The translations under genes and the position numbers were made by a program. Below are positions 18,836 to 23,918 of a stretch of 64,000 bases of DNA, one piece after another. The DNA comes from Coleofasciculus sp. B1-GNL1-01 (GTDB lineage: Bacteria; Cyanobacteriota; Cyanobacteriia; Cyanobacteriales; Coleofasciculaceae). The notes under the pieces are model-generated. The model worked only from the letters and a program-made list of their open reading frames with translations, did not search any database and was not told where the DNA came from. Position 1 is the first letter of the stretch. Each line of letters starts with the position of its first letter. The stretch lies in NCBI GenBank assembly GCA_040220235.1, contig JAVJTO010000081.1. One strand, 5' to 3'.

Positions 18836-19168
18836 ATGAAAAAAATCCACACCTTATCGGCGGTAATGAGTACCTTAATCTTGGTACTTATGAGCGCACC
18901 TAGAGGAAATTCGCAAACGCCTGATGTAACACCCCAAGAACCGACGAATACCTATCCTCCTGAGATGGTTCAAGTTTATATCGAGAACTGTGTTGGCGAT
19001 CGCCCAGAGGAAATCAGGGCATTTTGTACCTGTACGATTGAGAAGATTCAAGAGACTTACACCCTAGATGAATTCATGCAAATTGGTCAAGACTTGCAAG
19101 CCGGTCAGCCCGAACCGGAGGAGTTTAGGCAAATCATCACCTCTTGTGTACCCAATCAAGTTAATTAA
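18836..19168 (+). CDS. Hypothetical secreted Cys-containing protein
   Basis: Signal peptide; YP......Y...C...C.C....IQ..Y....F...C. Confidence 0.7.
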   Translation: MKKIHTLSAVMSTLILVLMSAPRGNSQTPDVTPQEPTNTYPPEMVQVYIENCVGDRPEEIRAFCTCTIEKIQETYTLDEFMQIGQDLQAGQPEPEEFRQIITSCVPNQVN

Positions 19169-19220
19169 GTAGTCGGACAAAAGAAAACGGTACTGTGTTA
19201 AGTTTTGCAAATTTCCCTTC

Positions 19221-20006
19221 ATGCTACATCGCTCATCCAAAGAGGGACTTATCTGCATCACACAACCGAACCACGCCTGGGTTTCCGGTGAATTAGCCCG
19301 GGCTTGGGGAAATGAACAGTTCGGTCAGTTTGTCCCACCCAAAGAACTCTGTCTCGCCGCCGAACAACATGATATCGGCTGGCTGTTGTGGGAACAAGCG
19401 CCCACTCTCAACCCCGAAACTGGCTATCCCTATAGGTTTACTGAACTCCCAACCCAAGTCCATATCGATATCTGGACGGGTGCGAAACAGCTAGCAATGC
19501 CTTGGGGGAGGTATGTGACGTTATTCGTTTCACTCCACGGTACTGGGCTATATGAGCGATATCAAAGTTGGCAGAAAAACCCGGAGTCTAGCCGAATTGT
19601 ACAGGATTTTCTGAACAGTGAGTATGCCTTTCAAGAACAGCTTATTGCTACGTTGAAAAACGACCCCCATTATGTCCCTTATGTGACACCAGAAATTATC
19701 AAACGCAACCAAAAACTGGTAGCGACTTGGGATGCTATTTCACTAATTTTGTGTCAGAATGTGTCAGGTGAACAGCAGGTTGAGCAGGTTCCTACGGCTG
19801 AGGGTGAAACTGTTCTAACGTTGACTCATGTTAATGATGATCCTCATCAAATCATTCTATCTCCTTGGCCCCTTCAGGAGAATGAGGTAACGCTGGTTTA
19901 TGAAGGACGGCTATTACGAGAAACGTTTACAGATGAGATGGCGATGCGAGAGGCGCTGAGGCGCGATGGCGGGTTAACTCTAACCACTATTCTGACACCA
20001 GAGTAG
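19221..20006 (+). CDS. DUF3891 family protein
   Basis: ITQP.HA..SG.LA.AWGN, A..HD.GW..WE, SLH and WD..SL..C. Confidence 0.85.
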   Translation: MLHRSSKEGLICITQPNHAWVSGELARAWGNEQFGQFVPPKELCLAAEQHDIGWLLWEQAPTLNPETGYPYRFTELPTQVHIDIWTGAKQLAMPWGRYVTLFVSLHGTGLYERYQSWQKNPESSRIVQDFLNSEYAFQEQLIATLKNDPHYVPYVTPEIIKRNQKLVATWDAISLILCQNVSGEQQVEQVPTAEGETVLTLTHVNDDPHQIILSPWPLQENEVTLVYEGRLLRETFTDEMAMREALRRDGGLTLTTILTPE

Positions 20007-20170
20007 GTTTCAGGTACTTTTCCAGAGTTGACCTTAACAGTTGAGTAGATTATATTTGGGCTGGGGTAATACCAAATTCGCTTTCATAGCCCCCCTTTAA
20101 ACTTTACGTGTAGGATAAGTGGCAACGCACGATAGCGGTATATTACATTGAGTCTTAACCTGCTGTATCC

Positions 20171-21342
20171 TTACTTACTACAACTGTCAGCGCACTTACC
20201 AACTTGCGCCCAAACTTCCTTACGAGGAAAATTGGAATCCACTCTTACTAAAGGTTCTATAGCAATCCTATTTAGGTCGTGGCAATTTTCAAAAATGAAA
20301 CCCTTGCTATACCTGGGTTTCGAGCATTTTGCTTGTTGCATCCTATTTAGGATTGCTATAATTTAATAATAACGAGCTTCTCTCCAGGTTTAAGTAAACC
20401 CACACTCTCTGGTAAATATGGCTTGGGTCTATATTTCCTTAAGTTCACAGGGTTTTTTACGGTTACGGCGTCTCCTATTGATGGAACACTAAGAGCATCA
20501 ACACTAGGAGCAAATCGAGGATTTGAAGATTGAATCAGTTGCTCTTTAACAGATAAACTATTTGAGGCATTATCAACAACACCTATTCTAATCCAGCCAA
20601 TTGGAGTTATGTTTTTTATTGAATTATAAGTTGCAGTAGGTACCAATAAAGGTATCCCTGATATATGGGTTAGGTGATTGATTGCGGTTACACTCACGAG
20701 AGCAATCATAGCAGGTACGATAATAGTCTTTAGGTTTGCCTTCTTGTGCCAACGAGACTTCACTTTTTTAGAGAAGACAAAAGCATCGACAGTTGGTATA
20801 GATGCCAGATTTCTTGCAACAGAAGTTGCACCTGCTCTAAGCCATGGATAAGATTTTAGAGAAAAGGGCGAAGTGCTTTGTTCTTCAATTAAGCGCCTAA
20901 TACCTTTAGCGATATTTTCAAAGGCATTATCATAAGGTTTCCAATCGGTTACAGGTTTTTCCCCTTCAGGCAAGGCTTTGAGATTAAGATTGTCGAACGC
21001 ACTCTTCCAATTATCGACTCGGCGAAGGAGAATAGGAATGAGAATAGCTTCTTTATCCTTATGCCTTTCTTTAGCAGTTTTCAGAACGATGTCCCAGTTA
21101 TAGTCTAAAGCAAAAAAGTCTGAACTAATTAGTAACAGAATTATATCAGCTGTTCTCAATTGTGTATATGTCTCATTTTCCCATTCTTTTCCCGCACCAA
21201 TCTTTTCTGGATGCCAGGTATTGATCAAGCCTTTCCGCTGCAAAATATTGAGCTGCTTGTCTAATTTTTTTAGCATGTATTCGTCATTTTTAGAATCAGA
21301 GCAACAATATAATACTTTGATAGGTTTAGCAGGCGACATCAA
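20171..21342 (-). pseudogene. TIR-TM-SH3-like protein interrupted near its 3' end by a MITE (current ORF 20356-21342)
   Basis: N-terminal TIR (W....I.AG.EW, ADIILLLISSDF, ILIPILLR, LP...KPV..W), one TM segment and an SH3-like tail; removing 20258-20358 restores 28 in-frame residues. Confidence 0.8.
20260..20358. mobile_element. 99-bp MITE with TA target duplication
   Basis: Ends TAGCAATCCTA...TAGGATTGCTA flanked by TA on both sides (20258-59 and 20359-60). Confidence 0.85.
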
Positions 21343-21420
21343 TTTCAGTACCTCTAAATTCGATATTAAATAGAGTTTACTTTGAACATCTATAGATCTT
21401 ATTAGAAGACAGCTATGTGT

Positions 21421-22893
21421 TTACACGCTGGCAACCAGTTCCTCAACTACCGCACGGATACCTCGAGCAACATTGCAAAATGCTTCGTCACGATTTCCCC
21501 ACTTGCTTACAGGTTTACCATCTTTAGGCAGTGGTTTAAGCTTGCCAAACGGTGCATTTTCCCAATTATCAGTGGGGTGGAGAATTATAGGAATAACCCG
21601 GGCTGTCTTCGCTTCATGTTTCTCCATTGCCCGCCTTACCTCAACACCCCAGCAATAATTTGAAGCCAGAAAATTTGTACTAATTAACAGTAAAATTACA
21701 CTAGCTGTATCTAGGTGGGGGTTGATTTCATTTTGCCATTCTTTTCCTGCTCCAATTTTACGTTTGTGCCAAGTTGTAACCACGCCCTGCCGTTTCAAAA
21801 TAATGAGGTGTTTTTCTAGCTCATCGCGTAGCTTTTCGTCTTGGCTAGCAAATGAGAAGAAGACTTCAATTGGTTTAACAGACGTAACTTGGTTGTCTAC
21901 TACATGCAAACTATTAGATGAATGAGAGCTTATAACTTTCTTGCTGGCGTCTATATTTTTGGGGAGGGAATTTAATTCCTCTGTAATACATGCTAATGGT
22001 TTAGTTACTACAGTTTCTTCTTCTAATTCTGTAAGATTTTTACCTTTTTTAGAATTAAAGTCAATCTTAGGTAGCTGTAAAGGTACTCTTAAACACTCAC
22101 AAATAAACTTTTTGACTCCAAGATAGATTTGATTTTCCTGGGAATTAGGCTTAAAGATGCAAATATGGTTATCTGCGATGGCGACAGGCTTCACCCCTTC
22201 AATACCTGGATTAGCGCTATCCGGGTCTACAACCAAGATTCCCTGTATCGGCTTCGTCTCATAATAAACCTTTGTTTGAATTTTCAGATGACGAACATTT
22301 TCCCGATACCATTCATTTAGTTCACGCAACTGAGGAGCGTGTGCTTTTAGTTCTTCAACGCTCACTGTGCTTCGCGCAAGAATGCCAATATTATCGATTA
22401 GTTGAGCTAGATGAGAACCGGTGTGTGGAGTGGCTAGAAACACAATACCCTTAGTCTTTTCTATAAGGGATTGTTTTCTGAAAGTCTGAGCGGTTCTCAG
22501 CATTGCTTTTACCACTAATCCACCCAAGCTGTGAGTAACGAATATCAGCGGACGCTGACCAATATCACGATTTTCTAACCAATCTAGTAAGTTGCTAGCT
22601 TGGTCAAAAAGTGGCATTGTTGAACCTTTCCATTCAAAAGCTTCAGCCGCATACCCAAAAGACCATATCCCAATATCTAACAAATCTGTTCCCAGCCAAG
22701 TCAGCCAAAAGTTATCATCATATAGCTCTTGCGGATGCCAAGTACTCCGAGCATTCCCACCTAAACCATGAATAAAGATGACATCGCCACTCCGACTAGC
22801 ATTTTCGCAACCTGATATTTTAATCAAACCCCTCTTTGTTTGCAAATTTTTATCGTATGAATTAGGCTTTTTACGACGCTTGAAAAAAAACAT
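21421..22893 (-). CDS. Alpha/beta hydrolase (PGAP1/SERAC1-like lipase) fused to a C-terminal TIR domain
   Basis: FIHGLGG, THSLGG, FLATPH.GS, YYET and NH..I.KP; TIR motifs VFFSFA..D, LLLIS.NFLAS.YC...E and VIPIIL. Confidence 0.88.
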   Translation of the reverse strand: MFFFKRRKKPNSYDKNLQTKRGLIKISGCENASRSGDVIFIHGLGGNARSTWHPQELYDDNFWLTWLGTDLLDIGIWSFGYAAEAFEWKGSTMPLFDQASNLLDWLENRDIGQRPLIFVTHSLGGLVVKAMLRTAQTFRKQSLIEKTKGIVFLATPHTGSHLAQLIDNIGILARSTVSVEELKAHAPQLRELNEWYRENVRHLKIQTKVYYETKPIQGILVVDPDSANPGIEGVKPVAIADNHICIFKPNSQENQIYLGVKKFICECLRVPLQLPKIDFNSKKGKNLTELEEETVVTKPLACITEELNSLPKNIDASKKVISSHSSNSLHVVDNQVTSVKPIEVFFSFASQDEKLRDELEKHLIILKRQGVVTTWHKRKIGAGKEWQNEINPHLDTASVILLLISTNFLASNYCWGVEVRRAMEKHEAKTARVIPIILHPTDNWENAPFGKLKPLPKDGKPVSKWGNRDEAFCNVARGIRAVVEELVASV

Positions 22894-23074
22894 ATTAGGC
22901 TTTCCTTTGAAAATAGCGTAATTTTAATGCAACTATTCAATTAGTAATACTGGCTACTATGTTAGCTGTATTAACGATGATTGAGATTATTGGATGTGCC
23001 AGTTGAAAGAGTAGAACGCATTGTTAAAATACAATCAATGTGGGGTTAGTGAGAAGAATCTAGCGATCGCCCTG

Positions 23075-23461
23075 CTAACCTGATCCTCCCTGACTCAACA
23101 CAGACACAATGTACTGATTGAGGCTCACATTTTCCCTGTCCGCTTTCTCAGCCAAACGACGATGCAACGATTTCGGCATCCGCAGGAGTAGCTTACCACT
23201 GTAAGTATCATCCGTACTGGGTAAAGGAATCTCATCTCCAGCTTCATAAGCTGTCTCAATCCACAACTCTCGCGCCTCATTTATGTTTGCGATCGTCTCA
23301 TCCAACGTTTCACCTTGAGTCAGACATCCAGGCAAATCTTTAATCTGAGCTACATATCCCCCCTCTGGATCGGGGTAAAGTGTTACTGGATACTGAAGAT
23401 TCAAATAATAGTCCAATGGCTGCTTCTCACTCAGCTTGTTCTTCTGGTTCAGTGTCTTCAT
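23075..23461 (-). CDS. hicB: HicB family antitoxin
   Basis: DLPGC.TQGET..E...NI.EA..LW plus RHH tail YSGKLLLRMPKSLH..L...A..E.VSLNQY. Confidence 0.93.
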   Translation of the reverse strand: MKTLNQKNKLSEKQPLDYYLNLQYPVTLYPDPEGGYVAQIKDLPGCLTQGETLDETIANINEARELWIETAYEAGDEIPLPSTDDTYSGKLLLRMPKSLHRRLAEKADRENVSLNQYIVSVLSQGGSG

Positions 23462-23702
23462 CGCTCCATTCCTCCAAGTTCAATAACTCAACGATTTGCT
23501 TGACATAAACCCCTTTAACTTTCTGTCCGCCTTTTTTGGGTACAGTAATTTTTCTACCTTGTGAATCTCGAAAACTATGGTGGCTACCCTTCGACCTTTT
23601 CTCTTCAAAGCCGAAAGCTTCCAGAAGGTAGCGCACGTCCTCAAACCGCACTTCTGGCGGTTTATTCAGGAATTGCTCTACTAATTTCTCTAATTTGCCC
23701 AT
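23427..23702 (-). CDS. hicA: HicA family toxin
   Basis: LL..FGF.....KGSH..F and ITVP; overlaps hicB by 35 nt. Confidence 0.92.
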   Translation of the reverse strand: MGKLEKLVEQFLNKPPEVRFEDVRYLLEAFGFEEKRSKGSHHSFRDSQGRKITVPKKGGQKVKGVYVKQIVELLNLEEWSDEDTEPEEQAE

Positions 23703-23788: not shown

Positions 23789-23918
23789 AAGTAGGTGGAC
23801 ACAATTAAAGTGAACGGTTGAGATTAGGGAACAGGGAACAGGGAACAGGGAACAGTAAGGGTTTGAGGGCAATTTGCAAAACTTAACACAGTACCGTTTT
23901 CTTTTGTCCGACTACTTA
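23789..23918. mobile_element. MITE with TAAGTAG..GGACA.AA terminal inverted repeats and an internal (GGGAACA)n tract
   Basis: TAAGTAGGTGGACACAA ... TTTTGTCCGACTACTTA; partial copies near 2415, 19166, 28294 and 57565. Confidence 0.75.

Follow-up and report, generated by a model that had tools for sequence, protein, structure and literature searches.

Why should a filamentous cyanobacterium encode, side by side, two closely related TIR domains of which one keeps the glutamate (Glu) of the usual catalytic position and the other has lost it? This arrangement is found in a window of 64,000 nt from Coleofasciculus sp. B1-GNL1-01 (contig JAVJTO010000081.1 of assembly GCA_040220235.1). On the minus strand it holds gene 1 (positions 21421–22893), coding for a 490-residue hydrolase-TIR protein, followed by gene 2 (20171–21342, also minus strand), coding for a predicted membrane receptor. 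The comparison of homologous loci strongly supports the two genes being coupled parts of a conserved, widespread module, which likely switches on a self-destruct defence. Our preferred reading, to which we assign a probability of roughly two in five, is that the receptor TIR binds the adjacent Glu-bearing TIR partner and keeps it restrained, the hold being lifted by a cell-wall signal.

The window had earlier been interpreted from its letters alone. This sequence-only reading described two co-oriented, AT-rich genes 78 bp apart, as they indeed are: the pair region has a GC content of 39.1%, among the lowest 1.8% of 16,475 genome windows, and the gap is 78 bp if gene 2 starts at the TTG at 21342, or 81 bp if it starts at the ATG at 21339. 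It also pointed to the absence of HIP1 sites; the absence is real, but it is uninformative as evidence, since 14% of all windows and 49% of GC-matched windows lack the site as well. A promoter and terminator scan gave matches at chance level, and no NCBIfam model exceeded its cut-off for the eight proteins tested.

The description of gene 1 as an alpha/beta hydrolase fused to a Glu-bearing TIR was correct. The hydrolase (amino acids ~21–275; 22069–22833, minus strand) is SERAC1/PGAP1/DUF676-like, with an HG motif (H42), the nucleophile S122 within THSLGG, and conserved E212 and H243 as the other putative members of the triad. Among Pfam families, DUF676 scored above its cut-off, and PGAP1 and Abhydrolase_6 below theirs; a sequence search found no solved relative of this domain. 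The TIR (amino acids 339–490; 21424–21879, minus strand) was assigned to TIR_2 over residues 344–444, and retains S347, S411, E418 (the Glu of the motif SNYCWGVE), W465 and the alpha-A His. Full-length homologues of gene 1 (P0193–P0199) are 71–89% identical to it, and the ratio of nonsynonymous to synonymous substitution rates (dN/dS) relative to L045 was 0.31.

Gene 2 codes, when intact, for a protein of 355 residues composed of a TIR, an amphipathic linker, a transmembrane (TM) segment and an ectodomain; in the window it is interrupted near its end. Its N-terminal TIR (20869–21339, minus strand) matches TIR_2 (E 3e-7) and is 47% identical to that of gene 1, and tblastn found no other TIR of this subtype in the genome. 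The Glu column is occupied by V85 (motif LDYNWDIV), the position of the BB-loop aspartate (Asp) by P44, and the SYAH motif is replaced by CCSDS; gene 2 therefore starts, as had been noticed, with a TIR of the gene 1 subtype that lacks the Glu. A hydrophobic segment at amino acids 203–221 (20677–20733, minus strand; Kyte-Doolittle 1.84), preceded by a basic cluster, is predicted to cross the membrane once, leaving the N-terminus inside. Hydropathy reached at least 1.6 in 33 of 35 gene 2 homologues, and all 35 were more positively charged before the segment than after it, which upholds, as a prediction, the single TM helix proposed earlier. The AlphaFold model of the product is confident for the TIR and the C-terminal domain. 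Pooled dN/dS values over 17 Nostoc loci were 0.32 for the receptor TIR and 0.30 for the partners, compared with 0.57 for the ectodomain, 0.88 for linker plus TM segment, and 0.13 for rtcA. Given its similarity to the value of the partners, that of the receptor TIR indicates that this domain is not decaying, but is under purifying selection. In a quick tree, receptor TIRs formed one clade (support 92).

The adjacency of the two genes is conserved. A scan of genome contigs, in which 80 of 315 matches were kept, provided 36 full-length homologues of gene 2, mostly from heterocystous taxa. A TIR gene lay directly upstream on the same strand in 32 of these receptor loci; three had none, and one was at a contig edge. 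Among further loci, L129 holds a second intact hydrolase pair, L240 a TIR-TIR partner and L241 an orphan receptor. In a second test, the profile of each TIR was searched separately in 360 genomes of one heterocystous family, scoring ten candidates per genome; the profiles were built from paired loci, and the cut for partners (256 bits) was set after seeing the scores. Partner matches of at least 256 bits were present in 41 genomes, all of which contained the receptor, although many of the 41 are loci from which the profiles had been built, and kin are not independent. The two TIR matches were adjacent in 39 of them (96–166 bp apart), and at facing contig ends in the other two. The receptor was detected in 47 of the 360 genomes, six of which lacked the partner. 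Six weaker partner matches were set aside; the five examined corresponded to a deletion fusing partner and receptor (L302), to three sister pairs with another TIR protein, and to a CHAT-TIR gene in a genome having the pair elsewhere. As a background, two TIR genes were found in 8 of 129 other loci of this TIR subtype, many on short contigs. A single-protein search at E ≤ 1e-40, which would miss the wider family, was positive for 2 of 52 family genomes. The adjacency has persisted through at least four cargo exchanges and at several sites (beside rtcA, a purH-like gene or DUF3891). The suggestion that the genes form a two-gene module survived the co-occurrence check.

Partners and receptors differ consistently at the catalytic positions. 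All 33 partners aligned have E in the Glu column, where all 37 receptors have L or V; in a background set of TIRs the column contains E in 135 of 141 rows and Q in two, and four rows end before it. The BB-loop Asp is present in 26 of 30 partners versus 0 of 30 receptors, and the alpha-A His in 30 of 30 versus 28 of 30. The solved sequence closest to the partner profile was that of Cat1 (E 7e-9), with which the partner Glu and Asp align at E74 and D33. The active site of Cat1 is reported to be lined by S7, D33, S68 and E74, to arise between stacked TIRs, and to require both E74 and D33 in vivo (PMC12162218). The catalytic degeneracy first noticed in gene 2 (Glu in 0/37, BB-loop Asp in 0/30) is hence a family-wide property, and the receptor TIR is likely inactive.

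Among the partners, the Asp was found in 22 of 22 bare TIRs, which are largely one clade and all keep the Glu as well, but in only 8 of 14 TIRs fused to a cargo. The hydrolase-fused TIRs lack it in all eight cases, the gene 1 TIR combining E418 with K377, while the residues corresponding to E418, S122 and H243 are present in all eight. As the Asp is lost in 8 of 8, NADase activity of the lipase-fused TIRs appears doubtful, and the TIR of gene 1 probably has weak enzymatic activity and is on its way to becoming an adaptor. The earlier reading connected the retained Glu with NAD+ cleavage; in view of the missing Asp, it does not show NADase activity in gene 1.

The partners carry variable cargoes. 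The 32 partners comprised 21 bare TIRs, eight CHAT-TIRs, two hairpin-TIRs and one hydrolase-TIR; full-length hydrolase-TIR proteins formed seven clusters. Amino acids 299–494 of the hydrolase-TIR P0197 align at 69% identity with amino acids 174–366 of the CHAT-TIR of L046, a stretch that starts at the very end of CHAT and includes linker and TIR, from which it appears that the hydrolase replaced a CHAT domain. The gene 1 linker (21880–22068, minus strand), the second half of which matches the CHAT-TIR linker in close homologues, would be a trace of this exchange. The same hydrolase domain heads NB-ARC-TPR and AAA_35 proteins, or adjoins NACHT genes, and such hydrolases have been counted among the effector families of fungal nucleotide-binding, leucine-rich repeat (LRR) receptor-like proteins (NLRs; PMC9815663). 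The lipase, proposed earlier as the core effector, is better seen from these comparisons as one of several swappable cargoes, being present in one of 32 partners and gained by replacement of CHAT.

Five loci (L056, L061, L304, L317 and L318) have a third gene, whose product starts with the same type of helical hairpin as the hairpin-TIR partner (phmmer E 3e-9 when three sequences were compared), and L035 holds a distant version of this chain. The hairpin of L056 and L061 had no match to an effector-associated domain (EAD) at E ≤ 2, and that of L035 matched EAD9 weakly (E 0.07). The gene upstream of the hairpin-TIR (L056:1567–2280, L061:5431–6123, L035:9737–10240) codes for a protein with the hairpin and a C-terminal KLKxxLPxxP motif; it belongs to no Pfam family, and its Atlas clusters are all hypothetical. 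Sister pairs were also observed, in which a consensus TIR is accompanied by a TPR- or GUN4-fused TIR of divergent sequence. At L255:83–1950, L308:2–1654, L311:3342–6108, L173:1763–5870 and L033:7215–9848 the consensus TIR has a C-terminal hairpin or an N-terminal CHAT, and the divergent TIR is fused to TPR where read. At L032:5701–11525 a caspase-GUN4 gene precedes four TIR genes of the same subtype, one of them a CHAT-TIR and two with a TM segment, while the island at L034:5159–17604 contains a CHAT-TIR, a ClpN-TIR(Gln)-GUN4 gene, two dynamin-like genes, a stand-alone hydrolase and an nSTAND3 gene.

The receptor ends in an all-beta ectodomain of 110 amino acids (20171–20607, minus strand), with a GWI strand, a predicted SH3b-like barrel and a terminal CxxxC motif that is invariant in 28 of 28 aligned receptors. 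A profile of this domain found 161 proteins, and the 64 scanned included 12 Ser/Thr kinases, five TIR_2 proteins, four beta-lactamase-like proteins, two caspases and a phosphoesterase. It lies behind one TM segment in kinases, caspases, TIR proteins and a phosphoesterase; other proteins with it start with signal-like peptides, and it also ends lipoproteins. Because it follows a single TM segment or signal-like peptides across these protein classes, the ectodomain would be located outside the inner membrane. SH3b domains bind peptidoglycan. Each single test gives weak support to the SH3b-like tail proposed earlier. The SH3_3 profile matched 11 of 28 members (best E 8.9e-5), its cut-off was passed by the relative P0113, an Atlas search returned SH3b clusters, and the top structural matches of the ectodomain model were SH3b cell-wall domains, with Z scores of only 3–4. 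No sequence match was found in the PDB.

The ectodomain also occurs in other arrangements. P0059, P0062, P0068 and P0082 end in it after an N-terminal glycine zipper, apolipophorin-like repeats and one TM segment; a second glycine-zipper gene adjoins such genes (L243:6147–9131, L244:1358–4407), possibly forming a membrane-acting sister system. Genes with a caspase, a TM segment and the ectodomain are present in L247, L248, L237 and L238, preceded by a small conserved gene in L247 and L248. In P0039 (five cluster members) a CHAT domain is joined directly to a TIR remnant, TM segment and ectodomain, that is, partner and receptor in one protein. P0031, P0033, P0034, P0035, P0040 and P0041 are receptor homologues of the orphan-type clade that start in the last part of the TIR.

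The way in which the pair is lost bears on how it might work. No intact partner without a receptor was found in the 360-genome test. The partner was cleanly lost and the receptor kept at L303 (beside rtcA), at L306 and L307 (beside a purH-like gene) and at L047/L050/L054, and partners broken by stops or insertion elements were seen at L315, L319 and L314; partner breaks or deletions totalled about six. The three receptor breaks (the window, L049 and L072) all fall in the ectodomain, and in the one case (L302) where a receptor TIR is deleted, the partner is cut as well. Such a pattern would be expected if the TIR and TM segment of the receptor must stay for as long as the partner is intact. In Arabidopsis pairs, sensor TIRs are described as lacking Glu or Asp and executors as having both, a His interface being needed for repression; RRS1 represses RPS4 (PMC13732033).

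Under the preferred reading of a restrained partner, the two TIRs would bind at the inner membrane, and the receptor would hold the partner inactive at rest. A peptidoglycan-related signal, arising for instance from phage entry or predation, would be sensed by the predicted periplasmic SH3b-like domain, and the released partner would assemble and act. The output would depend on the cargo: bare partners may cleave NAD+; in CHAT partners the CHAT protease might be activated by proximity; hairpin partners may recruit the third protein through the shared hairpin; and in the lipase lineage the hydrolase would be delivered to membrane lipid, the weakened TIR acting mostly as an adaptor. The hit cell would die or arrest, thereby protecting the filament. 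In the present genome, with its ectodomain cut short, the switch would no longer perceive its signal, while the TIR and TM segment would still be made.

Several observations weigh against this reading. The asymmetry in losses comes from few independent events (about six to zero, p~0.016; 3/3 breaks, p~0.027; with post hoc thresholds), and might equally stem from the partner being costly or the receptor having further uses. Some orphan receptors have stayed intact, and the L047/L050/L054 genomes have no other TIR of the subtype at E ≤ 1e-25. Receptors are no more similar to their own partner than to those of others (p = 0.34), and the receptor in the window is one of the two in 30 lacking the alpha-A His, having a Gln instead. 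AlphaFold leaves amino acids 157–239, TM segment included, without resolved structure; structural similarity to SH3b domains is weak, the best Z being 4.0, and Foldseek gave no match for the ectodomain model at E ≤ 0.001. Finally, 23 of the 36 loci have the pair beside rtcA, where the surroundings look like housekeeping genes and not like a defence island. A complex prediction for the two TIRs (alignments A4 and A5) scored 0.29 against a mark of 0.32, with controls not folded, and is used neither way.

Restraint leads only narrowly over recruitment of the Toll type, which we find somewhat unlikely. Here the partner would be idle until a ligand clusters the receptor, whose inactive TIRs would seed partner assembly and so activate the NADase or the cargo; the loss of catalytic residues would keep the receptor from firing merely because it is crowded in the membrane. 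The same pairing, topology and residue data fit this scheme, as do the Cat1 active sites formed between stacked TIRs. The BB loop contains SPG in 13 of 36 receptors, recalling the Pro-Gly described for Toll-like receptors (TLRs; PMC7075850), and the chains of hairpin-Y, hairpin-TIR and receptor genes (the five loci above, and distantly L035) have a receptor-adaptor-effector form. Recruitment predicts, however, both partner-only and receptor-only genomes, which numbered zero and six, and no break of a receptor TIR was seen beside an intact partner. The absence of excess similarity between receptors and their own partners, the Gln in the receptor of this lineage and the intact orphans count against recruitment as they do against restraint. 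Of the earlier proposal that the receptor recruits the lipase-TIR, the conserved pair and the receptor topology stand, while restraint accounts for the loss pattern no worse than plain recruitment does.

It is improbable that the pair, though coupled, serves envelope-stress or developmental signalling instead of defence. The ectodomain is common to Ser/Thr receptor kinases (12/64) and beta-lactamase-like lipoproteins (4/64), and the rtcA site is stable, which would suit such a role; against it stand the patchy presence (47/360 and 2/52 genomes), the repeated loss and breakage, a variable slot that the pair has in common with toxin-antitoxin-like cargo, and cargoes typical of NLR-like proteins.

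A reverse, Thoeris-like flow is less probable still. The partner would sense infection in the cytoplasm and make an ADP-ribose signal, to be bound by the Glu-less TIR of the membrane protein, then the effector. PADLOC scores both TIRs as ThsB-like, a TM effector is described in type II Thoeris (PMC13434031), and the linker before the TM segment is amphipathic (median moment 0.51); against this, the nucleotide-lining motifs are precisely what the receptor TIR lost, the ectodomain would be left without a role, and the Asp is lost in the lipase-fused partners. Equally improbable is a tandem TIR duplication inherited together without functional contact, since the 47% identity, the orphan receptors and the congruent trees expected from linkage alone (Mantel r 0.55) are outweighed by an adjacency kept over at least four cargo exchanges and several sites, and by the opposite, family-wide fixation of catalytic residues.

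In the window, gene 2 is interrupted by a miniature inverted-repeat transposable element (MITE; 20258–20360, 101 bp net) with 19-bp terminal inverted repeats and a TA target duplication, which introduces a stop after residue 327. The genome contains 15 full-length copies, three of them identical; the codons past the MITE (20171–20257) correspond to the last 28 residues of the intact orthologue P0002 (source label Coleofasciculus), and G004 has an empty site, lacking exactly the insert. The MITE assumed earlier, when a "MITE-repaired pair" was envisaged, is therefore real. Contigs from four of the four sequencing runs examined skip the insert. Since the RNA-labelled runs had flat depth and contigs of 57–78 kb, as the DNA run did, they show an intact receptor allele, not transcription. 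The module occupies a variable slot bordered on the left by a DUF3891 gene (19221–20006, plus strand) and on the right by a hicAB toxin-antitoxin pair (23075–23702, minus strand), both outside the module; the slot holds other cargo in G002, G003 and G008, of the same genus. Elsewhere (L125, L126, L127), the slot (20046–23062 in the window) contains an antitoxin-like gene with a gene for a 298-residue zinc-motif protein, a ParA-like gene, or a PIN-type pair, as named from motifs. A 53-bp inverted repeat (19166–19218 and 23866–23918; 98% complementary), which may be a dispersed repeat, brackets the block from DUF3891 to hicAB.

By analogy, the module resembles paired sensor/executor TIR receptors and Toll-MyD88, and belongs to neither. 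As in the plant paired TIR-NLRs RRS1/RPS4 and CHS3/CSA1, the genes are adjacent, the sensor TIR lacks the Glu and the BB-loop Asp that the executor keeps (lipase-fused partners here keep the Glu only), and the alpha-A His is present in both; in contrast to them, the module is bacterial, its genes are co-oriented instead of divergent, and its sensor is predicted to sit in the membrane and to expose a domain on the outside. Pfam detected no NB-ARC or LRR in either gene. With Toll/TLR-MyD88 and the interleukin-1 receptor (IL-1R) it would have in common a single-pass receptor, judging from hydropathy and charge bias, with a non-catalytic cytoplasmic TIR; some loci also hold a protein joining a TIR to a second adaptor, and a third gene sharing that adaptor. 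Toll-like and IL-1 receptors are described as having an N-terminal LRR or immunoglobulin ectodomain and a C-terminal TIR (PMC7075850), whereas here the TIR is N-terminal, the ectodomain SH3b-like, and the partner keeps its Glu.

In systems of multicellular bacteria that follow the EAD principle, neighbouring genes each code for a copy of a homologous domain, through which variable effectors, hydrolases and caspase-like proteases among them, are coupled to a constant core (Kaur et al. 2021, PMC8195603). The module likewise repeats one domain, fused to variable effectors, in adjacent genes. In the accounts given there and by Kaur et al. 2020 (PMC7159879) the TIR is an effector or signal generator, whereas here TIR_2 would be the coupling domain, with no NTPase and no named EAD or Death-like domain. 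Five architecture terms looked for in two supplementary files of PMC7159879 gave no match. The supplementary tables of PMC8195603, as far as they were searched, list TIR+TM architectures, and no TIR+SH3, CHAT+TIR or the present pair. The ThsB-like PADLOC model PDLC00420 matches both genes over the TIR only (profile positions 3–147 of 319), and Thoeris also has TIRs beside caspase-like or TM proteins (PMC13434031); in the present module, the protease or lipase forms one protein with the TIR, and the second gene is itself a TIR gene. ThsA had no match among 12 window neighbours (one open reading frame was outside the scan), SIR2_2 was not found in the genome, and no separate signal-binding effector gene was seen beside the 36 loci. 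Assignment to Thoeris (types I, II and IV) was rejected, there being no separate SIR2-SLOG, Macro-TM or stand-alone caspase effector. Partner TIRs share the S, D, S and E active-site positions with the CRISPR-associated TIR-CARF protein Cat1, but have no CARF domain and no CRISPR link. The pair was not found described in the open literature, the scope of the search.

Bacterial TIRs are known mainly as enzymes that cues in the cytoplasm switch on, and those of animals as scaffolds without catalytic activity. The module sets a Glu-bearing and a Glu-less TIR side by side, together with a predicted membrane anchor and outside domain. We tentatively propose, with somewhat less confidence than in restraint itself, that it represents a family of heterotypic TIR-TIR transmembrane immune receptors in filamentous cyanobacteria, in which an inactive sensor TIR would gate an executor TIR, some lineages having a TIR-TM-SH3b/hairpin-TIR/hairpin-effector chain; it would be a bacterial counterpart of plant paired TIR receptors and of Toll-MyD88 that senses the cell wall from the periplasm. 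The pair would serve as a two-gene test system for the means by which an inactive TIR may repress or seed an active one, which is a question left open for RRS1/RPS4 (PMC13732033). It would also allow tests of how catalytic TIRs become adaptors, every bare partner having kept the Asp and every lipase-fused one having lost it, and it points to cell-wall sensing in the defence of multicellular cyanobacteria.

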